A program made the position numbers and the translations under genes. The notes below the pieces were generated by a model. It was not told the DNA's origin and ran no database searches. It saw only the letters and a program-made list of their open reading frames with translations. Positions 7,222-27,508 of a stretch of 32,000 nucleotides of DNA are shown in pieces; position 1 is the first letter of the stretch, and the number at the start of each line of letters is the position of its first letter. The stretch is taken from the NCBI GenBank assembly GCA_001766815.1, contig LYOS01000002.1:294577-326576 (forward strand), in the 5' to 3' direction. Source of the DNA: Candidatus Syntropharchaeum caldarium (GTDB lineage: Archaea > Halobacteriota > Syntropharchaeia > Syntropharchaeales > Syntropharchaeaceae).

Positions 7222-7758
7222 TTGGTGGCAGCCGTGGCGAAACGAAATAATTTCCCGATATTTTTGGCTTTAACATGCACATACGCGCTATTCATCTTCT
7301 TCCTGTCTTCTCTATCCTCGCCACCAACCCCATCAAATGTGGGTTTCTTCATCGAGCTTGTGAAGGAAGTTATGAACTTGCTTGAAGGTCTCGGGCTTGA
7401 GTTTCTCCTCTATCCTTTTTATGCTGTATATCTGTATCCAGACAAGTTCATGCATGCTCTTCTATACATGGGCTTTGGTCTTCTATTGAATATGACCTTT
7501 CGGAATGCGAAGAATGCGGATTTGAGCAGGTACCCTGCTTTTGCTGCAGTTATAATCGGTACATTTTATGCTCTCACGGATGAGTTTCATCAGTCTTTTG
7601 TACCGTATCGCAACCCGAGCCTGACGGATCTTCTTGCAGATTTTACTGGTTTGGTACTTGCTCAACTTCTCATTCTCGTTTATCCTGGCATCCTGAAGCT
7701 GTTAAGCAAGAAAGGCAGGAAGAGGAGAAACAGTATAACCACCAGAAGGTATAAATAA
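7222..7758 (+). CDS. VanZ-like integral membrane protein
   Basis: 178 aa with about 4 TM segments. DKFMHALLYMGFGLLL and TDEFHQSFVPYRNPSLTDLLADFTGLVLA match the VanZ-like family signature. The ORF-track start is a TTG, so the exact start is uncertain. Confidence 0.65.
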   Translation: MVAAVAKRNNFPIFLALTCTYALFIFFLSSLSSPPTPSNVGFFIELVKEVMNLLEGLGLEFLLYPFYAVYLYPDKFMHALLYMGFGLLLNMTFRNAKNADLSRYPAFAAVIIGTFYALTDEFHQSFVPYRNPSLTDLLADFTGLVLAQLLILVYPGILKLLSKKGRKRRNSITTRRYK

Positions 7759-7790
7759 GTTTTGTGATATATTTTGCACGAGGGGTATTC

Positions 7791-10700
7791 GTGAAGGGAT
7801 CAACCAGGATATTATTCTTTGACCTCTTAATCGTCCTGCTATTCACATTCCTGGCGTATCTCTTTGTTCTCATTCCACCGTTTAATCAGACATCACTCAG
7901 AATTATTTTTGCGCTTCCAATACTGCTCTTCCTGCCAGGTTATCTCCTGATAGCAGCGATCTTTCCGAGAAGAGAAGAGCTGAGTGGTATTGAAAGATTC
8001 ACATTGAGTATAGGACTGAGTATCGCGATCTTTGTCTTTGATGGTTTTGCTATAAGCGTCACTCAATGGCGATTCAGGCCCACATCGATCATTTATTCAC
8101 TCTCACTGATAATATTAATCCTCACATTGATTACACTACTCGTGAGGCTCAGGATTCCAGAGGACAGACGATTCTATCTTGATCTCTCGATTTTTTCAGG
8201 TTTTATTGAATCATTACGCTCAGACGAGAGGCCGAGCGATATCGAGAAAGCACTTATAATCGCACTTGCTGGTTCGATCATAATCGCAAGCGGAATGCTC
8301 GTTTATGCCAAACTCACATTTGAGGAGGAGAAGTTCACCATGTTATACATCCTTGGTGCAGGAGGGAAAGCAGAGGATTATCCATCTGTAGTCTATCTGT
8401 TGGAACCCAGTTCCATAACCGTGGGTATTGAAAACTATGAGCATGCACCGGCGAATTATACACTCCAGGTTAAATTGGGAGGATACCTGCTTAAAGAAGA
8501 AAATCTGTCGCTTTCACATGGTGAAAAATGGGTAAATAAAGTCTATTTCACGCCAAAACACGTAGGTAAACACCTGAAACTTGAATTCGTGCTGTATAAG
8601 GATGGATCGATGATCCCCTATCGCTCGGTGCATCTATGGGTCGATTCGTTGATTGACTATGGCAATCTTACAAGGGTTCGAGAATATGCCTTATCAGATC
8701 TACCAGTCGTGGATAACCCGGACATGGAAGCAGATTCAGGCTGGATTTTTACAAAGAATATCGGATACTTCAGAGGCCATTTCACCAAATTCTATCAACT
8801 GGAGGAGAATGCAACCCTCTGTGGTTACGTGACCGATAACGTTACCAGCAAAGGGATTGCATACGCCCGTGTGAGTATTAACAACCATTATGGCTATGTA
8901 AAAACCACAACAACAAACAGCAGTGGTTATTACGAGATTCCAACAATCGCAGATCATTTCTGGATTGTATCCACCGCCAATGGCTACAGAGAAAGTGCGA
9001 CTGAATTTGATATATCCCCTGGAAAGAGGCTTGTTGTTAACATGAGTAATGATCCTCAGCCGATAGCCCAATTCAATATGACACTGGAGGAATTATCCAT
9101 CATAAATGAGACGATAGACACGCTGCCGCCTGATGAAGTACCTGAATGGATATTAACGCTTGATGGATATGTCATCGATGATGTAACCAGGCTACCGATT
9201 GCAAATGCGAGTGTGAAGGTGACGATTGAAGACATCTTTGAGAAGGTGCTTGTAACCGATCGAAGCGGGCACTTTGAGCTAAAGGCAATTCCGGGATCGG
9301 CAACGATCTCTGTTGATGCAGCAGGATACAGTGAGAAGACGACCTCATTCACGATATCTGATGATTCCACAATCGATCTAAGGCTTGAACCTGCAAACAC
9401 CACACCACCTCCATCATCCATGATGATCTTACCGATTGTGAGGGCAGGAGAGGAGGGGAACAGACCAGCGAGCGGGTTACCACCATGGGTATCTATTATC
9501 AAAGGATATGCAATCGATAATGTGACCTGTTTGCCGATTCCAGATGCAAGCATAAAGATCAGAAACGATTACGGTTTTGAGAGGTACACCACGACTGATA
9601 AGAATGGATACTTTGAGCAGAAAGTGATAACAGGCAGATCATGGGTAGAGGCTGAAGCAGATGGGTACATGAAAAGCAGTACAAGGCATGATATATCTGG
9701 TGAATATATAACTGACCTGAGACTGACGCCCGAGAGTGTCACCATTCAGGGGTACATCCATGATAATACCACAGGTGCCCCAATCTCCAACGCCCACGTG
9801 CGCTTAAAATGTGATGGGTATTCCAGCTATACCAGGACGAACACAAGCGGTTATTACGAGATTAAGACGATCGCAGGACTTATAAGGCTTGAAGTTACTA
9901 AAACAGGTTATTTTACCAATGAAACAGAGATCGAGATTCCTTATGGTGAGATACAGATAGTTAATATGACAATCGAGAGGACACCGCCACCAGCAACAGT
10001 CAGTGGGTATGTGTACTACAACCATACAGCACTTGCGGGTGTGATGGTTCTCCTGACAGATCATAAAGGTTATGAAGAAACAACTGTAACAGACAGAAAC
10101 GGATACTTCGAGACCGAGATTCTTCCTGGCCACATCTATTTACAGGTATTGCCGAGTGCTTATATGACGAGTAGTGTTGAGTTTGACGTGGGGAGTGGGG
10201 AGAGTGTGATTTTAAGAGAGATTGAGCTTGATGCGCTTCCAGAGAGTAGCTACCAGATCGATTATCCATCGAAAACACCCATACAGAAGGGATACTATGG
10301 AGAGATATATCAGGATATTGTATCAGATGAGGGTCTTGCAACCATATCGTTCAAGGTCAGCGACTCCTACACTTCAAATAGGAGTGAGGGGTATCTATTC
10401 AAGCAGGTTCTTTTGAACAATCTCGTTGTCTGGGAGGATGACGTTGCAGAGGATGAAGTCTGGCAGGAGATCAACGTCCCTGTTACACTTAATAATGGAA
10501 CAAACAGACTGGCATTACGCGTCTATGCAAAGAAAGAATCAAATAACTTCCCCCTGAGTGTGTGGTGGGATAGTATCAGGATCAAACCGTTTGAGAAGGT
10601 TACAAAAGATGTGGCTACCAGTTTCACCATCCTCGATGCAGAGGGAACCAGAGAAAATTACCCCACAAAACTTTATCTTGGCAAACCTGCGGCAGTTATT

Positions 10701-12428
10701 GCAAATATAGAAAATAACGAAGGTGAAACGATCAATTACATTCTCCAGGTTAAGCTCAACGATATATTGTTGAATAGCAAGAATGTGACCCTTGAGGATG
10801 GATCTAAATGGGAAGGAAAGATAACATTCACGCCAAATCAGATCGGTTCACTTTATAAATTGGAGTTTCTCCTATTCAAAGATGAGGTGAAAGAGGAACC
10901 TTACAAGAAGTTTACACTCTGGGTTTCATCAGATATCGACTATGATAACCTGGATCTTCTCGAAGAATATGACGTCTCACCACTTCCAGCACTCGTAAAT
11001 GGAGATATGGAATCTGGAGCATCTGATGGCTGGACGTACACCGAGCACGGCGCCAACTTCACAGGAGAAATAACCGATTCAACGATGGTCTCACCGATGC
11101 ACTCTTATGAGATCGGTCATAACGAGACACATGTTGGAGAGGGTGAGTACGCTGATATAACCCAGAACTTTACATCCGAGATCTATCCAGCCACCGTGGT
11201 AATATCATTCAACGTCAGAGATTCATACACTGCAAAGGAGGATGGTTACTTCCTGAAACAGGTTCTCCTGAATGATGAGCTGATCTGGGAAGAGGATGTT
11301 GCAGGCGATGAGGGGTGGCAGTACAAGAAGATCCCTGTACAGCTCGATGCTGGTGAAAACAGGCTTACATTGCGGCTTCTTGCTGTAAAAGCGAGTGACA
11401 ATTTCCCGATCAAACTCTGGTGGGACGATGTTAAGATAGAGCCTGTAACAGCCCTCAGAGAGGAAGCCCCCCTAACTTTCTCGATACTCGATGCAGAAGG
11501 GACAGATAAGAACTACCCAACCCAGTTACACCTTGGAGAGCCTGCAAATTTCATCAGCAAAGTCGATGTCAATGAGCGAGGGCAGATCAAATATATCTTA
11601 CAGATAAAACTTGATGGCAGGGTGCTTGAAGAGAGGAGCAGATGGCTTGAAAAGGGTATGAGATGGGAAGAAAATATATCGATTGTACCGGATCAAATAG
11701 GGGATGGACAGCAGCTTGAGTTTATGCTCTTTAGAGGGGTGGTAGAAGGTACACCATACAGGTACTTCCATCTTACAGTCTCAACAGATCTAAACTATGA
11801 TAGGATAGAGCCGCTTTTAAGATACGGGATAACTCCTCTTCCAATCCTCGATGGTGGAACGATGCAGCATATCTCAGCATGGAGCTCAAATTTTAACGGT
11901 AGTTTCAGGGGCTTTCTATCATGTGAGAACGCATCCTCACCACTATCCTATTGCATTGAGCAGAACGGCGCATCCAATAAAGGAGATTTTGGTGAGATCT
12001 GGCAGAATATAAGTGCTTCATCGGATGGTGTTGCGGTTTTATCCTTCAATGTACGGGACTCATACACCACAACATCAAGCAGTGCGAAGAACCTGACCAA
12101 AGAAGTTATCCTGAACAATAAAATCATCTGGTCAGACGATATTGCTGGCAGTGATTCAGGATATACAGGATGGGTTGTAGAGGAATACACATGGTTTGAT
12201 GATGAATGGTCGATAAAGGAAGTTCCAGCCGTTAAATCTGGATGGAGACACGTTGATGTTCCTGTGTATCTCAACCATGGTGAGAACAACCTGCGACTGG
12301 GTGTATATGCACGAGATCCTGCTGATGGACTTGCTGTCAGGACGTACTGGGACGATGTTGAGATAAAGCAGATTAGCGATCTGGTTAAGACCGGTGATAA
12401 TATCAGGATGAAACGGTATGGATGGTGA
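7791..12428 (+). CDS. Giant N-terminally membrane-anchored surface protein (DUF1616-type N-terminus; 3 x [Ig-like + CBM4/9-like] units; 5 CarboxypepD_reg-like repeats)
   Basis: The ORF is continuous from 7764 (GTG). GTG 7791 is preferred because GAGG lies 7 nt upstream. Five N-terminal TM helices are followed by a large repetitive beta-rich ectodomain. I counted 29 N-X-S/T sequons by hand. There is no C-terminal anchor. Confidence 0.85.
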   Translation: MKGSTRILFFDLLIVLLFTFLAYLFVLIPPFNQTSLRIIFALPILLFLPGYLLIAAIFPRREELSGIERFTLSIGLSIAIFVFDGFAISVTQWRFRPTSIIYSLSLIILILTLITLLVRLRIPEDRRFYLDLSIFSGFIESLRSDERPSDIEKALIIALAGSIIIASGMLVYAKLTFEEEKFTMLYILGAGGKAEDYPSVVYLLEPSSITVGIENYEHAPANYTLQVKLGGYLLKEENLSLSHGEKWVNKVYFTPKHVGKHLKLEFVLYKDGSMIPYRSVHLWVDSLIDYGNLTRVREYALSDLPVVDNPDMEADSGWIFTKNIGYFRGHFTKFYQLEENATLCGYVTDNVTSKGIAYARVSINNHYGYVKTTTTNSSGYYEIPTIADHFWIVSTANGYRESATEFDISPGKRLVVNMSNDPQPIAQFNMTLEELSIINETIDTLPPDEVPEWILTLDGYVIDDVTRLPIANASVKVTIEDIFEKVLVTDRSGHFELKAIPGSATISVDAAGYSEKTTSFTISDDSTIDLRLEPANTTPPPSSMMILPIVRAGEEGNRPASGLPPWVSIIKGYAIDNVTCLPIPDASIKIRNDYGFERYTTTDKNGYFEQKVITGRSWVEAEADGYMKSSTRHDISGEYITDLRLTPESVTIQGYIHDNTTGAPISNAHVRLKCDGYSSYTRTNTSGYYEIKTIAGLIRLEVTKTGYFTNETEIEIPYGEIQIVNMTIERTPPPATVSGYVYYNHTALAGVMVLLTDHKGYEETTVTDRNGYFETEILPGHIYLQVLPSAYMTSSVEFDVGSGESVILREIELDALPESSYQIDYPSKTPIQKGYYGEIYQDIVSDEGLATISFKVSDSYTSNRSEGYLFKQVLLNNLVVWEDDVAEDEVWQEINVPVTLNNGTNRLALRVYAKKESNNFPLSVWWDSIRIKPFEKVTKDVATSFTILDAEGTRENYPTKLYLGKPAAVIANIENNEGETINYILQVKLNDILLNSKNVTLEDGSKWEGKITFTPNQIGSLYKLEFLLFKDEVKEEPYKKFTLWVSSDIDYDNLDLLEEYDVSPLPALVNGDMESGASDGWTYTEHGANFTGEITDSTMVSPMHSYEIGHNETHVGEGEYADITQNFTSEIYPATVVISFNVRDSYTAKEDGYFLKQVLLNDELIWEEDVAGDEGWQYKKIPVQLDAGENRLTLRLLAVKASDNFPIKLWWDDVKIEPVTALREEAPLTFSILDAEGTDKNYPTQLHLGEPANFISKVDVNERGQIKYILQIKLDGRVLEERSRWLEKGMRWEENISIVPDQIGDGQQLEFMLFRGVVEGTPYRYFHLTVSTDLNYDRIEPLLRYGITPLPILDGGTMQHISAWSSNFNGSFRGFLSCENASSPLSYCIEQNGASNKGDFGEIWQNISASSDGVAVLSFNVRDSYTTTSSSAKNLTKEVILNNKIIWSDDIAGSDSGYTGWVVEEYTWFDDEWSIKEVPAVKSGWRHVDVPVYLNHGENNLRLGVYARDPADGLAVRTYWDDVEIKQISDLVKTGDNIRMKRYGW
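8340..10589 (+). repeat. Ectodomain unit 1: Ig-like module A1 (8340-8648) plus CBM-like module B1, which is split (8649-8820 and 10245-10589) by a nested repeat array
   Basis: A1 (YILGAGGKAEDYP...HLWVDS) aligns with A2 and A3. The B1 halves (PDMEADSGWIFTKN... and ...GYLFKQVLLNNLVVWEDDVAEDEVWQ...SVWWDSIRIKP) align collinearly with the uninterrupted B2 and B3. Confidence 0.8.
8821..10230 (+). repeat. Five tandem ~78-aa CarboxypepD_reg-like (PEGA/carboxypeptidase regulatory-like) domains
   Basis: The repeats lie at 8821-9048, 9159-9392, 9498-9731, 9744-9977 and 9999-10230. Each begins G-Y-[VAI]-x-D/Y-N/D-x-T and contains T-[DN]-x-[NS]-G-[YH]-[YF]-E. Pro-rich linkers (TTPPPSS, RTPPPAT) separate some of them. 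Confidence 0.8.
10617..11444 (+). repeat. Ectodomain unit 2: A2 (10617-10931) + B2 (10932-11444)
   Basis: TSFTILDAEGTRENYPTKLYLG...FTLWVSS is followed by NGDMESGASDGWTY...GYFLKQVLLNDELIWEEDVAGDEGWQ...KLWWDDVKIEP. Confidence 0.8.
11472..12371 (+). repeat. Ectodomain unit 3: A3 (11472-11786) + B3 (11787-12371)
   Basis: LTFSILDAEGTDKNYPTQLHLG...FHLTVST is followed by a B-type module ending RTYWDDVEIKQ. B3 carries an extra ~25-aa insertion (SGYTGWVVEEYTWFDDEWSIKEVPAVKS) relative to B2. Confidence 0.75.
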
Positions 12429-13450
12429 AACTTGCTATGAAAAACGCTAAGAAGCTCTTATTGCTCTGGATTGTGCTTGCAATACCGATTGTTGGGCTGG
12501 GCGGCGCTATCGGATGGATTACTGGATTTTTTCTTCATGCTCTGATTGTGATGCTTGTATTCGTCCTGCTTCTTGCCACCCTCTTCTACCTATACAGCGA
12601 CAGGATACTCCTCAGGTGGTACCATGCAGAGAAGGTGGTTGATGCTACCTCACCTCTATATGAGATCGTGCATAAGCTTGCAAAAGAAGTAGAGATCCCG
12701 GTTCCAGACGTATATATCGTGGATACGGCGATGCCGAATGCATTTGTTGTGGGTAGAAACTTTCAGCATGCATCACTGGTTGTGACCACCGGTTTAATGG
12801 AACTTCTTGAAAGTGATGAGATGGAGGCTGTGCTTGCAGATATGATTGTGCACATTAAAGAAGGAGATCTACTCACTGAAACGGAAATCGGAGCATTGGC
12901 TGGAATTTTAACTGCGCTGCCGATTATTGCCTTCTGGTGCTCGATCTTCACAGGATTTGGACAGGAGGATGATCCTGCACCGAACCTGATTAAATTCTTT
13001 GTAACCTCCCTCTTTGCACCGATAGCAGCAACGATTGTCCAGTTCGGGATCGCGGGTTCACGGCAGAAATACAGTGGGAATGCACCTGAAAAAAAGATCA
13101 AAGAAAAGCTGACGTCAGAGGAATTTTATGTAAATCCATCACATGCACACCTTTTGATCGTGAGCCCACCCTATCAGGATAATCAGGTTATACTGGACCT
13201 CAACCTTCCCACATATCATTCACTCTTTCAGAGGGTGAAACGTGAGAAATTCAACCTTAGAAGGCATCTCTTCTTCAGTTCCCTCTCGTATCTTTTTGTG
13301 CTCTTTATGATAATTGTGATCTATACATTCAGCAGAAAGGACTTTGACTTTCTCCACTCTGCTGCCATCTCAGCGGTTTATCTGAGTGCAGTTCTCATCT
13401 TTTATGCGATTATGTTGAAAATATTCAGGACTAATGCCAGGACCGCTTAA
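12422..13450 (+). CDS. M48/HtpX-like membrane protein with degenerate (probably inactive) metalloprotease motifs
   Basis: It has HtpX-like topology and conserved blocks (VPDVYIVDTAMPNAFVVGRN...ASLVVTTGLMELLESDEMEAVLA). The HExxH position reads D-M-I-V-H (12839-12853), and the distal SR-E-Y-x-AD block reads SRQKYSGN. The start is ATG 12422, overlapping the upstream stop as ATGGTGA, or ATG 12437. Confidence 0.7.
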   Translation: MVKLAMKNAKKLLLLWIVLAIPIVGLGGAIGWITGFFLHALIVMLVFVLLLATLFYLYSDRILLRWYHAEKVVDATSPLYEIVHKLAKEVEIPVPDVYIVDTAMPNAFVVGRNFQHASLVVTTGLMELLESDEMEAVLADMIVHIKEGDLLTETEIGALAGILTALPIIAFWCSIFTGFGQEDDPAPNLIKFFVTSLFAPIAATIVQFGIAGSRQKYSGNAPEKKIKEKLTSEEFYVNPSHAHLLIVSPPYQDNQVILDLNLPTYHSLFQRVKREKFNLRRHLFFSSLSYLFVLFMIIVIYTFSRKDFDFLHSAAISAVYLSAVLIFYAIMLKIFRTNARTA

Positions 13451-14276
13451 CATCTGCCATCTTGTTCAATATATACAGGAGAATTGCCACAACAATCACG
13501 AATACGATCCACCCAAGATGGACATGAACCATATACATTACCTCTTTACCATAGAAGAAGGCTGCAAGACAGATTGCTGTAACACGCATGAGATTTGCGA
13601 AATATGCAACGATGACCGTTATTCCAAGCAGCGAATAGAACTTATGCCGCTCTATCTGCTCTATCTTCATATATCCCACCATTATCCCAACCAGGAGAAA
13701 CATTGAGTACAGTCCTGAACAGGGTCCTCCGATTACGACGTTCATCTCTTCCACACCAGGAATATGAACTGTCTCGGTGGCGAGCACTTCAACAGGAATC
13801 CCTATCACGTTGAGTATTTTGACCATGGGAAGCAGAACAAAATAATGGTCAAAGATGTGCATGAATGCGATATCGAGCCTGCCAAAGATGATGAATAAAG
13901 GTATAAAGAGTAGAAGGAAGGTGGTAGACATGTACGTGCCAAACGCCCCCATCCTGCTTATCTCCTCGTTCTTTATGTCATAGGCAACAAGCGAGATGCC
14001 GAGCATGAAGGTCATAATATCCAGTGTACCGAGACTGCTCTGGGTCAGGATATTGTACGCAATGTCTGCTACAAGAATCAGGACGCCCAGTAGCATGTGT
14101 AATCTGGATTCAGGAACAATATGTGATTTACCCACCTTTATCCTTGAAATAAGTGCAAGAGCAATCAAAAGGAGAAAAATTCCGAGTGGGATGGAACCCT
14201 CGCTGATCTCAACGGTTGCACCCAGAAATAGTGCAAATATGAACAGAAACAGGATGATATTTTTAAAGTTTGTCAT
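13431..14276 (-). CDS. artC: Archaeosortase (exosortase/archaeosortase family); assigned to the PEF-CTERM-specific type (ArtC) from the adjacent cargo
   Basis: 281 aa, polytopic. The family triad is in canonical order and context: Cys186 in IGGPCSGLYSM (13719-13721), Arg231 in ANLMRVTAI, and His in HVHLGWIVF. Two PEF-CTERM genes lie immediately divergent. Confidence 0.8.
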   Translation of the reverse strand: MTNFKNIILFLFIFALFLGATVEISEGSIPLGIFLLLIALALISRIKVGKSHIVPESRLHMLLGVLILVADIAYNILTQSSLGTLDIMTFMLGISLVAYDIKNEEISRMGAFGTYMSTTFLLLFIPLFIIFGRLDIAFMHIFDHYFVLLPMVKILNVIGIPVEVLATETVHIPGVEEMNVVIGGPCSGLYSMFLLVGIMVGYMKIEQIERHKFYSLLGITVIVAYFANLMRVTAICLAAFFYGKEVMYMVHVHLGWIVFVIVVAILLYILNKMADVKRSWH

Positions 14277-14533
14277 CTTTACTGGTTTAAATTTAGCTTT
14301 CAGCTCTTATAAGTTTTTGCTCGGTGAAATTTTTTTCGCAATTAAGGCTTTGCACACCTTAAACCCCTAATTAACATGGTAACTTTGATATGGTATACTT
14401 AAACTTTTGTTTTCGATATTCGAAATTAATTTTAGCATGTTTTTACAAAGTGTCGTTAAATACTCTTAAAACTCAGTAGGAAGATGGATATATCCTAAAC
14501 TTTGAAATAAAGAAAGATCCACTCCCACACGGC

Positions 14534-14541
14534 TTTTATAA
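14534..14541 (+). promoter_or_regulatory. Candidate archaeal TATA box (TTTTATAA) for the PEF-CTERM gene pair
   Basis: It lies in the 320-nt AT-rich divergent intergenic region, about 55-60 nt upstream of ATG 14597. That spacing leaves room for a short leader carrying the AGGAGGT Shine-Dalgarno sequence. Confidence 0.3.
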
Positions 14542-14596
14542 TGCACCATATCCGTGATAACATTACAAACAAAATATAATAGGAGGTCGAGAATAA

Positions 14597-15148
14597 ATGA
14601 AAATCGAAAAAACAACAATTGTGTTTGTGATAAGTATAGCATTGCTTACGGTGATGGCAGGGACAGCGATGGCAATGCCGGCTACAGTAAATATAGCAGA
14701 CAATCCGATAATCAATCCGCTGGATGGCACTACAGTGACAACTCATACGGTGACCGTATCTGATATAGATTATGGAAACCTGGGTAATCCACAGACACGA
14801 TATATAAGCGTTATTACGGATGATCCAAATCTTCAGGTGAAGATCACAGGCAATGACGTTGATACAGGCTGGACAAGTACCACCAGAGCAGGAGGCACAT
14901 ACACTGCAAGTGGAGGAAGTGATTACACCTTTACACTCTATGTAAAAGGATCTGCAAGTGCAGATGGGAGCCACGTAACAGTATCTGACAACGAAGGAAC
15001 CAGTTATGATCCCGATGCATCAGCCGATTGCGCATCAGCTACAAGACCGGTCAATATCCCAGAGTTCGCGACAATAGCACTACCACTTGCTGCAACAATC
15101 GGGCTGTTCATCTACTTTGACAGCAGACGCAAGCGTGAAGAAGAGTGA
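14597..15148 (+). CDS. Secreted PEF-CTERM sorting-signal protein 1 (small beta-rich domain of unknown function)
   Basis: An AGGAGGT Shine-Dalgarno sequence at 14581-14587 lies 9 nt upstream of the ATG. The signal peptide is MKIEKTTIVFVISIALLTVMAGTAMA. The C-terminus PEF-ATIALPLAATIGLFIYF-DSRRKREEE has the motif + TM helix + basic tail layout. Confidence 0.85.
   Translation: MKIEKTTIVFVISIALLTVMAGTAMAMPATVNIADNPIINPLDGTTVTTHTVTVSDIDYGNLGNPQTRYISVITDDPNLQVKITGNDVDTGWTSTTRAGGTYTASGGSDYTFTLYVKGSASADGSHVTVSDNEGTSYDPDASADCASATRPVNIPEFATIALPLAATIGLFIYFDSRRKREEE
15059..15145 (+). other. PEF-CTERM sorting signal of cargo 1
   Basis: It is tripartite: a P-E-F motif, a 17-residue hydrophobic helix, and an RRKR-containing tail at the extreme C-terminus. 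Confidence 0.8.
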
Positions 15149-15206
15149 TTGGGGTTTTGAGTTTCTTCAAAGCTCTGTGAATTTTTCATAAGTGTGGAGG
15201 TGAAAA

Positions 15207-16022
15207 ATGAAAAAGACAAAAACAGCAATGGTACTTGTGGTGAGTATAGCGTTGCTTACGGTGATGACAGGGACAGCGATGGCAGCATACACGATTGACG
15301 GTGATCTCGATGATTGGGGTGTCCATCCCCCTGGCAGCTGGTACGCCAGCTCTCCTGCCAAAAGTGCAGTTGAGAACTGGGGCGATGGTCCCAATTCCGA
15401 TAGTATCAGTCCAGGTATAGAGGAATGCGATATCGAAGCGATGTACGTGGATGAAGATGTAAGTGGTCCGTATATTTATATAGCGATCATCACATCGATG
15501 CCACCAGAAGGTGTTGATTATGCCTGTGGCAGTGGTTCAATTCACCTTATATCTGGAGATCTTGCACTGGACTTCGACAACGATGGTATCTATGAGTATG
15601 GTGTAAAACTGACAGATGATAGTAGAACTGTGCCAGGTGATATAGGAGATGTATTCAGTAATCCAACGTGGGTTAAGATCACCACGCACTGCGCCCAGTC
15701 GCAGTTAGCCTTCAGTAACATCGATAGTGGTACAAAGACGGGACATGCAACGATCGTTTACACAAACTACGCAGACTGGTCATGGGATAACGGTGCAGCC
15801 AACTATGTTATCGAGATGAAGATTCCAAAGTCAGCACTTGGAATCTCCACAGAGGGCGAAGTTGACCTCTGCGCCACGGTGAGCTGTACAAACGACGTGA
15901 TAACGATCAAAGACTTTCACTACACTGAAATACCAGAATTCGCGACAATAGCACTACCACTTGCTGCAACAATCGGGCTGTTCATCTACTTTGACAATAG
16001 ACGCAAGCGCGAAGAAGAGTAA
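15207..16022 (+). CDS. Secreted PEF-CTERM sorting-signal protein 2 (mature domain begins AYTIDGDLDDWG, a CBM9/DOMON-like start motif; function unknown)
   Basis: A GGAGGTGA Shine-Dalgarno sequence at 15196-15203 precedes the start. The signal peptide is MKKTKTAMVLVVSIALLTVMTGTAMA. The C-terminus is PEF-ATIALPLAATIGLFIYF-DNRRKREEE. Confidence 0.85.
   Translation: MKKTKTAMVLVVSIALLTVMTGTAMAAYTIDGDLDDWGVHPPGSWYASSPAKSAVENWGDGPNSDSISPGIEECDIEAMYVDEDVSGPYIYIAIITSMPPEGVDYACGSGSIHLISGDLALDFDNDGIYEYGVKLTDDSRTVPGDIGDVFSNPTWVKITTHCAQSQLAFSNIDSGTKTGHATIVYTNYADWSWDNGAANYVIEMKIPKSALGISTEGEVDLCATVSCTNDVITIKDFHYTEIPEFATIALPLAATIGLFIYFDNRRKREEE
15933..16019 (+). other. PEF-CTERM sorting signal of cargo 2
   Basis: The tripartite tail is the same as in cargo 1. 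By my manual alignment, the DNA differs from 15059-15148 at only 5 of 90 positions. Confidence 0.8.
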
Positions 16023-16179
16023 GGGTTTGAGAGGATCAAGCCCTGTGAATTTTTCATAATTATGTATCGTGTTCATCCCTGAATTGGGGTAACCGTTAAG
16101 ATTATAACTTTATAAAGCTTAGATGGGGGCATGGAGTGGATACATCTCATCTATGCACTGATAATTCTCTGTATACTCG

Positions 16180-18265: not shown

Positions 18266-19261
18266 ATGCAACAATACATCGAGAAGATAACATCGGGTAA
18301 CGATCTCTCGGTCGATGAGGCAGCAGATATGATGGATCAGATCCTGACCTCTGCCACAGACAGCCAGATAGCATCTGTTCTGATCGGTTTGAAGCTTAAG
18401 GGAGAGGCCACATCTGAGATAGCGGGACTTGTAAAAGGGATGAAGGCAAAGTCCAGATCGATCAATCCCGACGTTCCAGTCCTGATCGATACCTGTGGAA
18501 CTGGCGGGGATAGTTCACATACAATCAATATCAGCACCATAGCAGCAATTATCGTTGCATCCAGTGGTGTAGGGGTTGCAAAACATGGAAACTACTCGAT
18601 CACGTCGAAGTGTGGTAGCGCTGACATACTGAAGGCTGCTGGCGTCAGGATCGATCTTGGTCCTGAAGAAGTCACCAGGATGATAGAAGAGGTTGGGTTC
18701 GGGTTTATGCTTGCTCCGATCTTTCACCCTTCGATGAAGCGTGTTGCCCCCATAAGACGTGAGATCGGCGTCAGAACAGTATTCAATATCCTGGGTCCAC
18801 TCACAAATCCCGCAAATGTGAAAAAACAGGTGATTGGAGTCTTTAATCCCGAACTATGCACGAAAATGGCAGAGGTTTTAAGAGAACTCGGATCAGAACA
18901 TGCGCTTGTTGTTCATGGTTCAGGGCTTGATGAGATCACAACAACAGGTCCAACAGATATCATTGAACTTAAAAACGGTGATATTGCATCCTTCAGGATC
19001 ACACCCGAAGATTATGGTCTCAGAAAGGCAAAGCTTGAAGATCTCAAAGGAGGAGATGCTGAATATAACTGTAAGATGATGCTTGAGATATTGAATGGGA
19101 GAAAAGGCTTTATGCGCGATATTGTCCTCTTGAATGCTTCTGCAGGGCTATATATCGGTGGGCAAGCATCGGATATTAAAGAAGGGATCGAGATCGCTGA
19201 GAACCTCATTGACGAAGGGCGAGGAATCGCAAAACTCAATGAGATGATTGAGTTTGGATGA
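18266..19261 (+). CDS. trpD: Anthranilate phosphoribosyltransferase
   Basis: It contains DTCGTGGDSSHTINIST, KHGNYSITSKCGSADIL and NILGPLTNPA. ATG 18266 (MQQYIEK) is preferred over the ORF-track TTG at 18236. It lies 4 nt after the trpB2 stop. Confidence 0.9.
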   Translation: MQQYIEKITSGNDLSVDEAADMMDQILTSATDSQIASVLIGLKLKGEATSEIAGLVKGMKAKSRSINPDVPVLIDTCGTGGDSSHTINISTIAAIIVASSGVGVAKHGNYSITSKCGSADILKAAGVRIDLGPEEVTRMIEEVGFGFMLAPIFHPSMKRVAPIRREIGVRTVFNILGPLTNPANVKKQVIGVFNPELCTKMAEVLRELGSEHALVVHGSGLDEITTTGPTDIIELKNGDIASFRITPEDYGLRKAKLEDLKGGDAEYNCKMMLEILNGRKGFMRDIVLLNASAGLYIGGQASDIKEGIEIAENLIDEGRGIAKLNEMIEFG

Positions 19262-21843: not shown

Positions 21844-23388
21844 TCAGGAATTTCTGGCTGGTGTCACATCCAGAAAGTAAACATCCCCTTTCCTGACGCC
21901 ATCGAGTATCTCAAGCCCTGAAACCACCCTTCCAATGACGTTTGTCGAGGCTGCAATCTCACCTGTCGGACCAAATACTGGGTCGTCAATGAGCCGTATC
22001 CCGATCGTGCCTTCATGGGGCCTGCTCATGTTTGTAACACCGATCACCCCACGTTCAAACCCCACATCCTCGGCAGGTGTGTTCTCGGGCTTGATCATCA
22101 CACGCCGATCGCCACCCCTGAAGAGTATGAGTGATTCGATTGCACCGGTAACCACGAGTTTTCCAACACGATGATTTCGGTAGAGGCCCGTAACGTCCTT
22201 GAAATAATGAACAGTCTCAGGAGCCTCCTCCTCAAACAACTCCACACGCAGCAGATTATCAGGTGCGATCGCTTCGGTTTCGACCTTTCCCTGCTTAAAT
22301 ATCTCGATAGTCATATCTGGCTGCTGTGAGACGATGATCGCATCATCCGCCTCTTCACCCTTTCTAATATGTGTGATACCGATCTCTTCGAGGAGTTTTT
22401 CTGCTTCATACTGGCTCATACCAACGAGAAATACCTGTACAGGATTTGTATGAACCGCTATCTTATCTCCAAGCCTTGCAACATCAATGAGTTCGATCCC
22501 TGACCTGACCGTGCCAAAGGCGTTCATGTAGTGCTGGGGCATCCTGAGCTTTTTGTAGAAGTAGATCGAGTTTTTCCGATCGCCATCGTTCCTGAGAAAC
22601 GCCATTCCCCGATCTCGGAATGTGCGATTGTTCTCAACACCTATCTCAAATATCGGTGGACTCACCGAGCGAATGTAACTGTTCGAGACCTCATCCACCG
22701 TTAAAAATCCGTTATTATTCCTTAAATATGCCAGGAATGACTCTGCAGAGCAGGGTGCCATCTCTGATAGCTCAAGAGCGATCGATGTATAGATCTCCAT
22801 GCCATCCTCGACGACATCGGTTAAGGAGAGCCTGTCAAGAAGTGACTCAATCGCATATTCGGGTGCAATCTCCTTTATGACATCATCGATCACAAGATCC
22901 TGCAAAATTGTTCTGCCGCCACCTATCACCCGCCCGATCACTGCATCATCTGGATCTGGTGGGAGAAATAGTCGATCCTCGTGTTCAGTGCGTGCAATAC
23001 CGAGATAAGTCTCAGGGTCACCTGAGCCGATTCTAAAAAGGAAAATATCTCCGCGTTTGAGCCTGATTGAAGCTGCCGAGTACTTTGTGTCACTATCCAG
23101 CCTCACGGGTGAGAAGATCACAGCATTTTTTCCAATGATCTCAACCTTTTTTCCGATCCAGGCCTCATATATTGGATGCCATTTTTCCCGCATTCTCGCC
23201 TGGAACTTACCCTTCGTTGTTGTGAATGTGTATTTATCTGTGCGGGCTTCTATCTCTCCTTTACGCTCAACCACAAGCATATCGGGATCAAATATCGGCT
23301 CGAACTTCTCAACAAGCGATTTTACAGTTGTAACTCGATCAAGTTCTTCTTCTGAGATTATAGTACCGTTGAGCTTTATACTACGCAT
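21844..23388 (-). CDS. Probable methanogenesis marker protein 3 (UPF0288 family) with cyclophilin-like C-terminal region
   Basis: 514 aa. Its length and N-terminus (MRSIKLNGTIISEEEL) fit my recollection of the family. There are two cyclophilin-like G-rich blocks (VIGRVIGGGRTILQDL and NVIGRVVSGLEILDGV). The assignment is from memory and unverified. Confidence 0.5.
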   Translation of the reverse strand: MRSIKLNGTIISEEELDRVTTVKSLVEKFEPIFDPDMLVVERKGEIEARTDKYTFTTTKGKFQARMREKWHPIYEAWIGKKVEIIGKNAVIFSPVRLDSDTKYSAASIRLKRGDIFLFRIGSGDPETYLGIARTEHEDRLFLPPDPDDAVIGRVIGGGRTILQDLVIDDVIKEIAPEYAIESLLDRLSLTDVVEDGMEIYTSIALELSEMAPCSAESFLAYLRNNNGFLTVDEVSNSYIRSVSPPIFEIGVENNRTFRDRGMAFLRNDGDRKNSIYFYKKLRMPQHYMNAFGTVRSGIELIDVARLGDKIAVHTNPVQVFLVGMSQYEAEKLLEEIGITHIRKGEEADDAIIVSQQPDMTIEIFKQGKVETEAIAPDNLLRVELFEEEAPETVHYFKDVTGLYRNHRVGKLVVTGAIESLILFRGGDRRVMIKPENTPAEDVGFERGVIGVTNMSRPHEGTIGIRLIDDPVFGPTGEIAASTNVIGRVVSGLEILDGVRKGDVYFLDVTPARNS

Positions 23389-23857
23389 TCCCTTTCACCT
23401 TTGACTCTACCCTGATTTCCTCTATTCGCGTCTCAGGGTAATTTCCAGTTGCATCCTTCTCATTCGACTTCACCATATCCCAGATGGTAAGAAGGGCGGT
23501 GGATACGCCATTGAGTGCATCCATCTCAACACCTGTCTTTCCAACCGATTTTACTGTGGCTGATGCGGTTATATGATCATCTTCAATATCAAATTCAAGA
23601 TCAACATCGGTTATCGGAATCTGATGGCAGAGCGGGATCACATGAGGTGTGTTTTTGACTGCCATAATCCCCGCAATCCGTGCTGTCAGGAGAACATTTC
23701 CTTTCTCAACCTGCCCTTCACGAATTTTTTGGATCGTGGATTCTCTGAGTTTTATCGAACCGACCGCACGGGCAGAGCGTACAGACACTGCTTTATCAGA
23801 GATGTCCACCATCTTTGCACGATCATTCGTGATGTGCGAGAAAGCGTGGGCTGTCAT
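23381..23857 (-). CDS. moaC: Cyclic pyranopterin monophosphate synthase (molybdenum cofactor biosynthesis protein C)
   Basis: 158 aa. It contains MVDISDK, GNVLLTARIAGIMAVKNT, IPLCHQIP and GVEMDALNGVSTALLTIWDM. It overlaps the downstream gene by 8 nt. Confidence 0.92.
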   Translation of the reverse strand: MTAHAFSHITNDRAKMVDISDKAVSVRSARAVGSIKLRESTIQKIREGQVEKGNVLLTARIAGIMAVKNTPHVIPLCHQIPITDVDLEFDIEDDHITASATVKSVGKTGVEMDALNGVSTALLTIWDMVKSNEKDATGNYPETRIEEIRVESKVKGNA

Positions 23858-24315
23858 TTCTCTTTCTTGCCCCCTTTAAGCCTCGAGAACATCGATGAAA
23901 GATGGATCACATAACTACCATCACCCTTGAGGGCAACGATGAGTTCGTCACGCTCGAGCAATGCCTCAATATTAACCTCATAAGAGCCAGGTTCTATTAT
24001 TCTGACAGATTCGAGCCTTGAATCGTGCTCTATAGTTCCATCTTCGATCTTATCGATTATCTCCTCGATATCCTCAGGCGCACACTTCTTTTCGATCAGG
24101 TCTATATCTGCCTCGTGACGCTCTTCTCTTTCAGGGGGTCGCTCGCCTTCACGTATAAATAAGAACCGATTCGATCCGCAATCCGGACAGCCTGCAAGTA
24201 TTGCGTCATCGTTCTTCTCGAATACTCTTCCACACCCGATGCATTTATGTCCCACGCGGTACACCTGCTGTTTCTTACCTATTTTTTGTTGAAATGACCG
24301 CAGAGATAAAGTCAC
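23854..24315 (-). CDS. Archaeal Zn-ribbon protein (DUF2072-like)
   Basis: It contains HKCIGCGRVF...GCPDCGSNRF (4-Cys ribbon). Its stop overlaps the moaC ATG (ATGA). The maximal ORF starts at GTG 24315. GTG 24264 or 24255 (giving M-GHKC...) would avoid a 41-nt overlap and fits homolog N-termini as I recall them. Confidence 0.6.
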   Translation of the reverse strand: MTLSLRSFQQKIGKKQQVYRVGHKCIGCGRVFEKNDDAILAGCPDCGSNRFLFIREGERPPEREERHEADIDLIEKKCAPEDIEEIIDKIEDGTIEHDSRLESVRIIEPGSYEVNIEALLERDELIVALKGDGSYVIHLSSMFSRLKGGKKEK

Positions 24316-24646
24316 GCTCTTTTGAGATTGTTTTAAGCTCGTTTGCAGGTCCTATTATCGTAAGGCGCGGCTCGTGAACGGCGCCTTTTCCAAAAATCTT
24401 TTCCAGCCAGCCACTTTTTTTCTCTGGTGGATAGCTCTCGATCTCGATGCCTGGAAAGTCATCCCTGATCTCGGTCATTGTATACTCAATGAGTGTCGCT
24501 TCCTCAGCAGGGGTAAGCCCACGCTCCAGTATGACGATCGACCCTTCCTGCACCCGATCCAGTATCATCCGTGTCTTCTCGATCGAGGTCATCCCGTTTA
24601 GCATATCATAAGAGATGAGATCAAGTTGAATATCTTTATCTTTCAT
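24275..24646 (-). CDS. Conserved archaeal protein (DUF2073-like)
   Basis: About 123 aa starting MKDKDIQLDLISYDMLNGMTSIEKTRMILDRV. ATG 24646 lies 4 nt behind a GGTGA Shine-Dalgarno sequence that also spans the GTPase stop codon. The family assignment is from memory. Confidence 0.55.
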   Translation of the reverse strand: MKDKDIQLDLISYDMLNGMTSIEKTRMILDRVQEGSIVILERGLTPAEEATLIEYTMTEIRDDFPGIEIESYPPEKKSGWLEKIFGKGAVHEPRLTIIGPANELKTISKERDFISAVISTKNR

Positions 24647-24650
24647 CCAA

Positions 24651-25292
24651 TCACCCAAACCTTTCTGCTATCGCCTCATACATCTCATCAAGGTTCTCCC
24701 CCTCAAGTGCCGATATCGCAACCATGGGATGCTGAGGAAATGCGGTTGCTATACGCTGAGGTGAGGCGCTCGATAGATCGATCTTATTTGCAACAACAAG
24801 CAATGGTAGATTTCTTGCTTCCATATTTCCGATCACAACGACGTTCACCTGCGTAAATGGATCTTCGGTTGAGTCCATCACAAGAAGAACACCGTCAAGA
24901 TCTTCAAGCCACTTGATAGCCTCAATAACACCTTCTGTCGCTTCTTTGGCGCGTTTTTTGGCTTCCTCTTCTTTGAGACCCTGCTTCATAAAGTCATGAA
25001 AATCGATCTTGGTTGCAAGACCTGGTGTATCAACGATATCGAGCTCAACCACCCCACCATTCACACATATTGCAATACCCTCCTTACGCATTGCACGCCG
25101 TGTTTCATGAGGGATATGAGATGTCTCCCCAAATGTCTCCTCGCCGTTTGTCCAGTCCATCAGGATTCGATTTGCAAGCGTGGTCTTGCCTGCATTTGGC
25201 GGTCCATAGATACCGATGCGCGTCCTTCCCTTCTTAAAGAGCTTCTTTATCAGATATGATATGTTACGCCTGAATTTTTTGAATATACCCAT
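24651..25292 (-). CDS. Small GTP-binding protein (TrmE-Era-EngA-like P-loop GTPase)
   Basis: 213 aa. G1 is GPPNAGKT, G3 is DTPG, G4 is NKID and G5 is SAL. A basic amphipathic N-terminal segment, MGIFKKFRRNISYLIKKLFKKGR, precedes the P-loop. Confidence 0.85.
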   Translation of the reverse strand: MGIFKKFRRNISYLIKKLFKKGRTRIGIYGPPNAGKTTLANRILMDWTNGEETFGETSHIPHETRRAMRKEGIAICVNGGVVELDIVDTPGLATKIDFHDFMKQGLKEEEAKKRAKEATEGVIEAIKWLEDLDGVLLVMDSTEDPFTQVNVVVIGNMEARNLPLLVVANKIDLSSASPQRIATAFPQHPMVAISALEGENLDEMYEAIAERFG

Positions 25293-25393
25293 CCCGTCCC
25301 CGCTTTATCTTGATTACTGGTTAAAACTCTCTGATTGTATATAATACTTTTCTTGAAAGAAGGTTGCCAGCTCACAAGGTATCATTTCGCACC

Positions 25394-27508
25394 TCACGGC
25401 AGTCCGATCATTCCGTGCTTGGGGCTGAAAAATGTCCCATCCCGCAGAAGTCCCTCAACAATCTCCTCTGCCCGCTGCCTCTCGATCCCACTGGACTCGG
25501 CACGCTCATAAACCTCCTCGATCGGGCATGCATCACCACCATGTTCCTTTATCAACCCGCGCACGATATCTCGTATGATCTTCGCACGATCTCGACGGGT
25601 TTTTGTTGTTCCAACAGCGATCCAGTCGGCATCAAGCCTGCCTGTCTCAGGATCAACTCCCACCTGCAGAAGACTATCTTTTACGACCTTTATGATACGA
25701 CTCGCATCCTCCTCTGTTACCTCCTCGCTCAACCGCATCCGTGCACACGCTTCACCCAGTCGCACAAGTGCCTCAAGCTGCCTTGCTGTGACGGGAACAG
25801 GCGCATCAGAACCGATACCCTGAGACCGCAGATCCACATAGAATTGTTTGAACTTCTCCTGTGCTTCTGTCGTCATAACAGGGAAGATGTTTCGCCGTGC
25901 GTATGCGATGTACTTTCTGAGAAGATCTGGTGAGATCTGCGGGACGTTCGCCAGGTCATCCTCACTATCGACACCTCTTGCTTTCAGTTCACCAGCGTGA
26001 TGGGATTTGAGGATGTGCTCTGCGATTTTTGTATCGAGCACCTCGTCTGGGTCGTCCGTTAGTGTAAATATGAGATCAAACCGTGATAAAAGCGTGGGCG
26101 ACATCTCAATTTGTACGCTTATCGGCTCATATCGATCAAACCTTCCGTATTTTGGGTTTGCAGCACCAAGAAGTGCACATCTTGATTTCAGCGTTGCTAT
26201 AATACCTGCCTTTGCCACAGAAACTGTTTGTTGCTCCATAGCCTCATGCAGCGCGGATTGGTCTTTCTTATCCATCTTATCTATCTCATCAACCGCAGCA
26301 AGTCCTTTATCAGCCAAAACAAGCGCCCCAGCTTCAAGCGTCCACTTACCATCTCCTAACTCATCCCTCACAGCGGTTGCGGTCAGGCCTGCACTTGTTG
26401 TGCTCTTTCCAGATGTGTAAATACCACGGGGAGCAAGTTTAGCGGCATAGCGCAGGAGTTGTGACTTTGCAATTCCTGGATCACCCACCACAAGCGTATG
26501 AATATCCCCCCTGATTCTCCCACCATCAGGAAGATCTTTTGCAACCCCAGAGAATAGCTGAAGTGCCATCGCCTCTTTAATGTTCTCGTAACCAAATATA
26601 GAAGGTGCTATAGAGGATATTATCTTATCATAGATATCTGGATCGTTTTTTAACTTATTTATCTCCTCTTCATCCTCTTTGGTGATTTTAAGCTCATCAA
26701 ACTCCTGTTCTTCTCTCTCGATCGATATTCCTTCAAGATAGATCTCAAATACTGGTGATCGCACCCCGGTCTTGCTCCGCCGCTGATATGAGCGCAGAAT
26801 ACCGTTGATGATGATGCGATCCCCTGGCATTACCATACCTGTTATATCCTCCTCAACTTCGATATCAAGCGTCTGCGGCTGCTCACCACCACGTAAATTC
26901 TCTGGATACTCCTGTATTCTGATCCTCTGTGCATCGATGTACGCGGACTTATCCTTCAAAAATCTGAATATTTTACCACTGCTCTTGCAGCCCTCATCCT
27001 CCGTGCCTTCACCGCAGGTTCTTGGCTCTCGGAATATAAGCCCCTGCTGTATAACTTTATTGACGACGTGACATTTCATACACTCAAAGTGGGCCACCCT
27101 TACCTTTGGTCGCACATCTGCAACTGTCCGCACCAGCCCTTCAACTGCTATGAATTTGTTGATGTGTTGCCCCCGTATGCTCCTTATCGGGAGTTTTTTT
27201 GGAAGCTTTGTCACCCTGATGTGCGCATCGGGCATTTCCCCACCTGTTGAGAGATCACTCTTTCGAAGCGCCTCCTCTGCTGCGTGCAGGATTTCGGTGG
27301 GGTTCTCAATAAGCTCGTATGCAAGTGAGGGATCAAATCGCTCAATATCCTGAAAATTAACATTGAGGCTCATCTCATCGGGATAATAGACAGATAACCT
27401 CCGTACATCCTCTTCATAATACTTCCTCAAAAACTCCATCCATCGGTCAATACTCGCATCTTCCATACGGCTGAGTATTGTGTTGACCATATTTGTATTT
27501 TGTTTCAC
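25394..27508 (-). CDS. mcm: Replicative helicase MCM
   Basis: 704 aa. It has a C4 zinc motif (CMKCH...CGEGTEDEGC), Walker A GDPGIAKSQ, Walker B DEIDKM, sensor/Arg-finger SRFDL and a C-terminal winged-helix region. The ORF start is GTG 27508; an alternative ATG lies at 27490. Confidence 0.95.
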   Translation of the reverse strand: MKQNTNMVNTILSRMEDASIDRWMEFLRKYYEEDVRRLSVYYPDEMSLNVNFQDIERFDPSLAYELIENPTEILHAAEEALRKSDLSTGGEMPDAHIRVTKLPKKLPIRSIRGQHINKFIAVEGLVRTVADVRPKVRVAHFECMKCHVVNKVIQQGLIFREPRTCGEGTEDEGCKSSGKIFRFLKDKSAYIDAQRIRIQEYPENLRGGEQPQTLDIEVEEDITGMVMPGDRIIINGILRSYQRRSKTGVRSPVFEIYLEGISIEREEQEFDELKITKEDEEEINKLKNDPDIYDKIISSIAPSIFGYENIKEAMALQLFSGVAKDLPDGGRIRGDIHTLVVGDPGIAKSQLLRYAAKLAPRGIYTSGKSTTSAGLTATAVRDELGDGKWTLEAGALVLADKGLAAVDEIDKMDKKDQSALHEAMEQQTVSVAKAGIIATLKSRCALLGAANPKYGRFDRYEPISVQIEMSPTLLSRFDLIFTLTDDPDEVLDTKIAEHILKSHHAGELKARGVDSEDDLANVPQISPDLLRKYIAYARRNIFPVMTTEAQEKFKQFYVDLRSQGIGSDAPVPVTARQLEALVRLGEACARMRLSEEVTEEDASRIIKVVKDSLLQVGVDPETGRLDADWIAVGTTKTRRDRAKIIRDIVRGLIKEHGGDACPIEEVYERAESSGIERQRAEEIVEGLLRDGTFFSPKHGMIGLP

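Follow-up and report, generated by a model that had tools for sequence, protein, structure and literature searches.

Two adjacent genes beside an archaeosortase C (ArtC) gene of Candidatus Syntropharchaeum caldarium carry nearly identical DNA at both ends and enclose bodies that are unrelated to each other. The genes, g1 (183 amino acids, aa; 14597-15148) and g2 (271 aa; 15207-16022), are same-strand open reading frames (ORFs) on the + strand in the ORF listing of the 32-kb stretch of DNA analyzed here, which we call the window or W. We consider it likely that their ends are kept alike by gene conversion and that whole cassettes are gained, lost or exchanged at these ends. Under this model, the array would be a mosaic in which g2 acts as the conserved anchor, while the position between ArtC and g2 is taken by one or more partners that vary by lineage. 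Its constant parts would be, on the 5' side, the ribosome-binding site (RBS) with the signal peptide and, on the 3' side, the PEF tail followed by a terminator-like hairpin. Non-reciprocal copying among the genes of one genome would keep these parts near identical and, because they are alike, they could serve as substrates for homologous or unequal recombination, through which cassettes would be deleted, added or replaced. The direction and exact mechanism of each event (in-place conversion versus differential loss), as well as any selective advantage of the ends as the portable modules that the initial annotation had in mind, are inferred.

W was compared with several related loci. L005 (JGI Ga0117909_1163230) is a relative of W with the same two-gene array, g1' and g2'; L012 is an independent metagenome contig from a strain-level relative (98.7% identity to W over 4208 nt). 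L017 belongs to Ca. Argoarchaeum ethanivorans, L038 is an independent ENA assembly, and L037 is a relative of L017 with 88% nucleotide identity. The host of W is suggested to be an archaeon like the alkane or methane oxidizers.

Near-identical ends and unrelated cores of g1 and g2

In an unbiased repeat search, the top two direct-repeat families of the whole window are the ends of g1 and g2 (91 nt at 95% identity and 80 nt at 85%). The 80-nt repeat pairs the constant 5' module of g1, which encodes the signal peptide MKIEKTTIVFVISIALLTVMAGTAMA (14597-14674), with 15205-15284, and the 91-nt repeat pairs its constant 3' module, the PEF-CTERM tail IPEFATIALPLAATIGLFIYFDSRRKREEE with the stop codon (15056-15148), with 15930-16020. 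The initial annotation had counted 2 differences in 42 nt between the signal-peptide blocks (14633-14674 and 15243-15284) and 5 in 90 nt between the tails including the stop codons (15059-15148 and 15933-16022); both counts are exact. The likeness that it had traced past the stop codons was reproduced as a 27-nt repeat with 89% identity in the 3' flanks (15170-15196 and 16038-16064). Its claim that the mature regions share no detectable similarity also holds, alignability being what would have spoken against cassettes: BLASTP of g1 against g2 aligns residues 1-26 (73%) and the last 31 residues (94%) only, and BLASTP of the cores alone yields E = 7.3 over 9 residues.

The two cores have separate histories. 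The g2 core (15285-15929, ~215 aa, beginning AYTIDGDLDDWG) is a conserved beta-sandwich, as judged from its homologues and from AlphaFold2 (AF2) modeling. The g2 family comprises 89 homologues, the closest of which are 85%, 77% and 73% identical; by lineage, identity is 85%, 77% and 72% in L005, Ca. Syntrophoarchaeum butanivorans and Ca. Argoarchaeum ethanivorans, respectively; for the core, the orthologues in L005, L016 and L017 are 77-85% identical. Remoter members occur in Methanosarcina, and the family often adjoins ArtC. The AF2 model of g2 (predicted local distance difference test score, pLDDT, 82) has an all-beta body flanked by a helix at either terminus; Foldseek found no PDB match to it at E <= 0.001, with CBM9 and the ethylbenzene-dehydrogenase gamma subunit as faint matches only. 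The g1 core (14675-15055, ~127 aa) is related to the Ca. Methanogaster proteins P0092 and P0100 (59% and 55% identity, E = 8e-39 and 2e-30). These are ~179 aa long and lie at unrelated loci, with different signal peptides and tails. Homologues, AF2 and Foldseek point to an immunoglobulin-like (Ig-like) beta-sandwich for this core: its model (pLDDT 83) has an all-beta body with N- and C-terminal helices, and the Foldseek matches are generic Ig-like or adhesin domains (E from 1e-4). Sequence comparison revealed no likeness of the g1 core to the g2 core or to the g1' core of L005, and Pfam, NCBIfam and PDB sequence profiles gave nothing significant for either W core.

These relationships bear on whether the pair arose by a recent tandem duplication of a whole gene, followed by very fast divergence of the mature domains with the ends conserved. 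The tandem layout with its repeated 3' flank and RBS resembles a duplication unit, and both cores are beta-sandwiches. However, the g2 core is conserved across genera and detectable in Methanosarcina, while the closest relatives of the g1 core sit between different ends at other loci. Each core thus comes from an old family of its own, and the near-identity of the ends is therefore younger than the cores. This excludes a simple duplication followed by divergence and renders the account as a whole improbable. Duplication may have made the repeated flanks; the bodies did not diverge from each other in place.

Cassette turnover and probable homogenization of the ends among relatives

The initial annotation had suggested looking in related genomes for cassettes of variable number or identity between the constant ends, and both kinds of variation were found. 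Across the array, W and L005 share 84-85% identity outside the g1 core, which is unalignable from 14675 to ~15052. The break points are sharp: identity stays at ~86% as far as 14674, where the signal-peptide sequence ends, falls to the random level, and returns at ~15053, just before the I-PEF motif. The core that occupies this position in L005 comes from a family of small PEF-CTERM proteins that is large (128 representatives) and includes P0103, the first gene after ArtC in L014, whereas the g1 core of W belongs to the P0092 family. The difference could reflect in-place conversion, or the two lineages could have retained different members of an ancestral array that was longer; both histories need recombination in the shared ends.

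Cassette number varies in the Argoarchaeum lineage. The L017 locus reads DUF1616 giant, HtpX, ArtC, three PEF-CTERM genes and BacA, and its PEF-CTERM genes are separated by a 240-nt junction repeat (92% identity) that contains the tail, stop codon, hairpin with T-run, spacer, RBS and the first ~40 nt of the next gene. The three-cassette array is reproduced in L038, which is 99.98% identical to L017. Within the same flanks, L037 has two cassettes; the difference is one 695-nt unit whose ends fall inside the junction repeat, and the single junction of L037 resembles J1 in its left part and J2 in its right part. The partner cores found beside g2 (W g1, L005 g1', L017 A and B, and the 169-aa gene of L016) are mutually unrelated.

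Constant ends around variable cores, together with cassette content that differs between close relatives and an insertion sequence (IS) in or near the array of the L005 lineage, could also be read as programmed variation within a clone, be it through silent cassettes of the pilE/pilS or vlsE kind, an invertible element, an integron-like array or a diversity-generating retroelement. We regard this as very unlikely. Both genes are complete, from the RBS and start codon through the signal peptide to the terminator-like hairpin, and silent copies lacking a promoter are absent; Pfam annotation shows no recombinase, integrase or reverse transcriptase in the 32-kb window; and the inverted repeats around the locus are short and imperfect, none of them significant. 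Moreover, strains that are 98.7% identical share the arrangement, and the changes are seen on evolutionary time scales.

The likeness of the ends extends to synonymous positions, as the initial annotation had noted, and exceeds what codon bias provides. With expectations drawn from the codon usage of 20 window ORFs, 26 of the 29 degenerate codons for the same amino acid are identical between the two tails, compared with 10.9 expected, a level reached in none of 200,000 simulations; in the signal peptides, 14 of 16 are identical (5.2 expected, P about 1e-5). The alanine codons of the tail vary by position (GCG, GCA, GCT, GCA), and the same pattern recurs in g1 and g2, as shared DNA ancestry predicts. 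The possibility that no DNA was exchanged, and that constraint on the peptides by Sec and ArtC plus codon bias made the ends alike, must be set against these counts. Protein-level constraint is real and strong, given that the tail peptide PEFATIALPLAATIG is identical in several genomes. In the DNA that encodes it, however, W and L015 each show 0-1 differences in 44 nt between their own tails, and L005 and L012 each show 3-4, whereas 4-9 synonymous differences in 44 nt separate the W/L012, L005 and L015 lineages from one another. The likeness also runs into non-coding DNA after the stop codon, and the 240-nt junction of L017 spans the intergenic spacer. Codon constraint as the sole explanation, which the initial annotation had named among the outcomes that would refute its reading, is thus largely refuted, and we give it very little credence.

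Grouping of the tails within genomes supports gene conversion as the cause of their likeness, the process that had been proposed to act on the constant ends. In a four-sequence test with W g1, W g2, L005 g1' and g2', 7 tail sites group by genome, 2 by orthology and 0 in the third arrangement; 4 of the 7 by-genome sites are synonymous (TTC/TTT, GCG/GCA, GCA/GCG and GGG/GGA). The corresponding test on the Argoarchaeum pair L017/L037 gave 4:2:1. In a matrix of 60-nt tails from five lineages (W/L012, L005, L016, L017 and L015), the g2 tail is nearest to the tail of its own non-homologous neighbor (1-10 differences) as compared with its g2 orthologues (9-19 differences). Synonymous divergence (dS) between W and L005, computed separately for ends and core, agrees: paralogous tails (0.21-0.24) lie below both orthologous tails (0.40-0.62) and the g2 core (0.46).

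Homogenization of the tails reaches beyond adjacent genes, as L015 has homogenized tails in two genes that lie 4 kb apart with a 999-aa gene between them. Comparison of L012 with W shows all four g1-tail differences and both g2-tail differences at sites where the two tails of the other strain agree, a distribution that fits recent conversion tracts, short of proof. L015 represents another Methanosarcinales lineage, and its intervening 999-aa protein (L015:1221-4220, - strand), as read from the sequence, has a C-terminal part that resembles beta-helix repeats and a dockerin-like end.

Several points weigh against gene conversion and cassette turnover at the ends as the explanation. The informative sites are few, with ~20 synonymous sites per tail behind the counts of 7:2 and 4:2:1, and the signal peptides of W and L005 split 3:3, so that within-genome grouping shows no clear excess there. 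The 193-aa neighbor gene in L013 differs from its neighbor at 17 of 60 nt and hence shows no homogenization, and the loci of the remoter lineages L018 and L020 contain no DNA repeats. Within the source genome, the tail comparison covered g1 and g2 only; a back-translated tail pattern had no match in the GTDB representative genomes, among which the source species is therefore missing. The TIGR03024 (PEF-CTERM) profile aligns over its full length (1-25 of 25) with scores of 13.3 bits for g1 and 15.9 bits for g2, missing the cut-off of 23, and the step in which ArtC would probably swap the tail for a membrane anchor, likened to that of ArtA on PGF-CTERM proteins, is one that we infer. All comparison loci are metagenome contigs or metagenome-assembled genomes, in which shared 90-240-nt repeats invite short-read chimeras. 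That assemblers joined different PEF-CTERM genes through their shared ends is nevertheless scarcely credible, because the arrangement of g1 tail, spacer and g2, carried in W by a 410,801-nt contig, recurs in L012 from another sample, the two-gene array recurs in L005, the three-gene array of L017 recurs in L038, and the flanking ArtC/BacA synteny is shared by L017, L037 and L038.

Sorting signals, archaeosortase C and comparable systems

The ArtC gene (13431-14276, - strand, 281 aa) is divergent from the g1/g2 array. Its product matches TIGR03762 (archaeo_artC) with 267.1 bits against a cut-off of 100 (E = 2.3e-79, covering 3-272 of 274) and also matches PF09721; 403 homologues were found at E <= 1e-60, many of them named archaeosortase C. 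At the loci of the ArtC homologue P0107 (L039-L041), no PEF-CTERM gene adjoins ArtC. Both W proteins end in an I-PEF motif, a ~17-residue hydrophobic helix and RRKREEE, the tail reading IPEFATIALPLAATIGLFIYFD(S/N)RRKREEE-stop, and the AF2 models place the C-terminal helix at residues 157-182 of g1 and 246-270 of g2. Inspection of their N-termini suggests a Sec signal peptide, in which an n-region with charged residues and a hydrophobic core precede an A-M-A cleavage motif, and AF2 gives an N-terminal helix. The relatives P0102, L017_A and L017_B score 23-24 bits with TIGR03024. For both genes, the protein database lists precomputed matches to PF26596 (PEF-CTERM_ARCH); our own Pfam search of the g1 and g2 proteins gave no PF26596 match. 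Because the TIGR03024 scores lie below the cut-off, membership in the PEF-CTERM class rests on this anatomy, the linkage to ArtC and the relatives. The proteins of g1 and g2 are presumed substrates of the adjacent ArtC, and they are probably secreted surface proteins whose tail is removed by this enzyme.

Sorting by ArtC and PEF-CTERM is already known, archaeosortase C having been described to recognize PEF-CTERM (Haft, Payne and Selengut 2012, J Bacteriol 194:36, as cited in PMC5244752). The locus resembles that system in having ArtC beside genes whose products begin with a putative signal peptide and end in a PEF motif, a hydrophobic helix and a basic cluster. It differs in that the description known from the literature searched concerns signal and enzyme, whereas here both ends are homogenized at the DNA level and cassettes turn over at junction repeats. 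In the full-text literature on PEF-CTERM, archaeosortase and PEP-CTERM, we found no description of end homogenization or junction-mediated cassette turnover, and the end-homogenized cassette architecture of ArtC substrates appears to be undescribed.

Three other systems offer comparisons. The emm/mrp/enn cluster of S. pyogenes, a product of duplication and intergenic recombination, consists of tandem sortase-substrate genes in which conserved signal-peptide and LPXTG ends enclose variable middles. The array shares with it tandem substrates of a sorting transpeptidase, conserved ends, a variable surface-exposed middle and recombination between neighbors. The emm cluster is bacterial, uses sortase A and LPXTG and has homologous coiled-coil middles, in contrast to the unrelated core families, the archaeosortase and the repeat that includes terminator and RBS in the array. 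Flagellin and archaellin genes have conserved termini and recombining variable central domains, and so resemble the array in having constant termini required by a machinery, with a central domain exchanged by recombination within conserved ends. Their termini, however, form the filament core and their variants are alleles of one gene. In g1 and g2, by contrast, the ends are signals that are cleaved off or direct sorting, and each variant is a gene of its own within the array. ArtA processes the PGF-CTERM of the S-layer glycoprotein of Haloferax volcanii by C-terminal cleavage and lipid anchoring. To our knowledge it is the only experimentally studied archaeosortase, and we know of no reported substrate cassette array for it. 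ArtA is a model for the probable role of ArtC, although it belongs to a different archaeosortase subfamily and acts on a different signal.

Archaeosortase substrates are the main known route for fixing proteins to the surface in many archaea, and in uncultured alkane- and methane-oxidizing lineages the surface is the contact site with syntrophic partners and viruses. Our data suggest that the sorting signals are also recombination handles, homogenized at the DNA level and located beside the sorting enzyme, which would provide a concrete mechanism for archaeal surface diversification that is testable with population data. More speculatively, and with the balance of probability against it, the junction module of PEF tail, terminator hairpin, RBS and signal peptide could be more than a passive by-product of recombination, namely a maintained "plug-and-display" scaffold and thus a selected display system. 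If so, any beta-sandwich domain from the own genome or those of relatives could be recruited to the ArtC locus, where its expression, secretion and anchoring would follow immediately. Such recruitment would allow rapid turnover of surface domains at the population level in alkane- and methane-oxidizing Methanosarcinales-type archaea, for example in syntrophic-partner recognition or virus evasion, and would constitute an archaeal counterpart to bacterial surface-antigen cassette systems. The arrangement also provides a natural blueprint for the display of foreign domains by archaeal cells. For annotation and assembly it carries a warning, as shared ends of 90-240 nt can mislead both orthology calls and short-read assemblers.

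Parts of the array and its surroundings

Upstream of g1, a control region on the + strand (14534-14596) contains a TATA-like element, TTTTATAATG (14534-14543), as the putative promoter, and the RBS GGAGGT (14582-14587). A 36-nt block in this region (14543-14578) is identical in L005, and 14485-14680 of W is 84.8% identical to positions 115-308 of L005. The junction between the two genes, also on the + strand, begins with a terminator-like hairpin (15150-15177) followed by T5 (15182-15186), and continues with the RBS GGAGGTG (15196-15202) and the g2 signal peptide (15207-15284). On the same strand, the g2 PEF-CTERM tail IPEFATIALPLAATIGLFIYFDNRRKREEE with its stop codon (15930-16022) is followed by a second terminator-like hairpin (16022-16044), T5 (16050-16054) and CATAA, where the repeated unit ends (16059).

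Folding and a terminator scan support both 3' elements, with a minimum free energy (MFE) of -11.9 kcal/mol (z -2.75) for the g1 flank (15150-15186) and -14.5 kcal/mol (z -3.48) for the g2 flank (16022-16054). The hairpin is retained in L005 and L012 despite differing stem length and loop. Among five sequences, no pair was altered on both sides, so that its support comes from folding energy and conservation rather than covariation. The copy of this flank behind g2 had initially been taken for the leftover scar of a duplication unit. Such a reading is not required, because the g2 flank has its own terminator-like element, a hairpin plus T5 as in the g1 flank, and need not be a dead scar.

The g1 core (14675-15055) has a GC content at third codon positions (GC3) of 0.34, compared with 0.45-0.52 in g2 and all neighboring genes. 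A recent foreign donor of this core was considered and rejected, as its nearest relatives are only 60-70% identical at the DNA level and have higher GC3, and no donor was identified.

In the L005 lineage, an IS lies between ArtC and g1', with an 18-nt terminal inverted repeat, CACTCGTGATCGGTTAAG, and a target duplication of ~10-11 bp, GGATGTAACTT (L005:1-116, L034:4-119 and L036:97-114 on the reverse strand); the empty site in W is at ~14485-14505. The same IS end, 100% identical over 116 nt, abuts the PEF-CTERM gene P0089, which has no signal peptide and therefore looks truncated by the IS. We had considered P0089 (L034/L035) as a third allele at position 1 of the array and rejected it, as its 5' 116 nt are the IS end and it occupies a different locus, beside BacA.

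On the right, the likeness between W and L005 ends at 16066, a few bases past the repeated 3' flank. Downstream of g2 lie PEBP and TrpB2 in W and BacA, on the opposite strand, in L017, L037, L038, L011, L015 and L034. Since the downstream gene varies by lineage, the right edge of the array is a synteny break point.

The left flank is conserved and comprises, all on the + strand, a VanZ-like gene (7222-7758), a gene for a giant DUF1616/CarboxypepD_reg protein (7764-12428) and one for an HtpX-like M48 protease (12422-13450), identified with Pfam and NCBIfam; their order is the same in L017 and in L037. The giant protein (1554 aa) has three DUF1616 matches and at least 5 CarboxypepD_reg repeats, with internal DNA repeats ~924 nt apart, and the stop of its gene overlaps the start of the HtpX-like gene. 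The protease and ArtC genes are convergent, and their 3' ends overlap by 20 nt (13431-13450; L037:4057-4076). This overlap and the order VanZ, DUF1616 giant, HtpX and ArtC are conserved in the Argoarchaeum relatives, which suggests that the protease, the giant protein and the sorting system are functionally linked.

Pfam annotation of the window shows ordinary chromosomal genes around the array. A 514-aa ORF (21844-23388, - strand) has no Pfam match at E <= 1e-5. Genes for OapC (origin-associated protein), a small GTPase and MCM are clustered at 23854-27508, with GyrA next, and this region may be near a replication origin. At the end of a TrpD-like gene, 250 nt (18970-19215) hold 22 of the 55 differences between W and L012, against a background of ~1 per 100 nt; the cluster may be a recombination tract or a contig-end effect.

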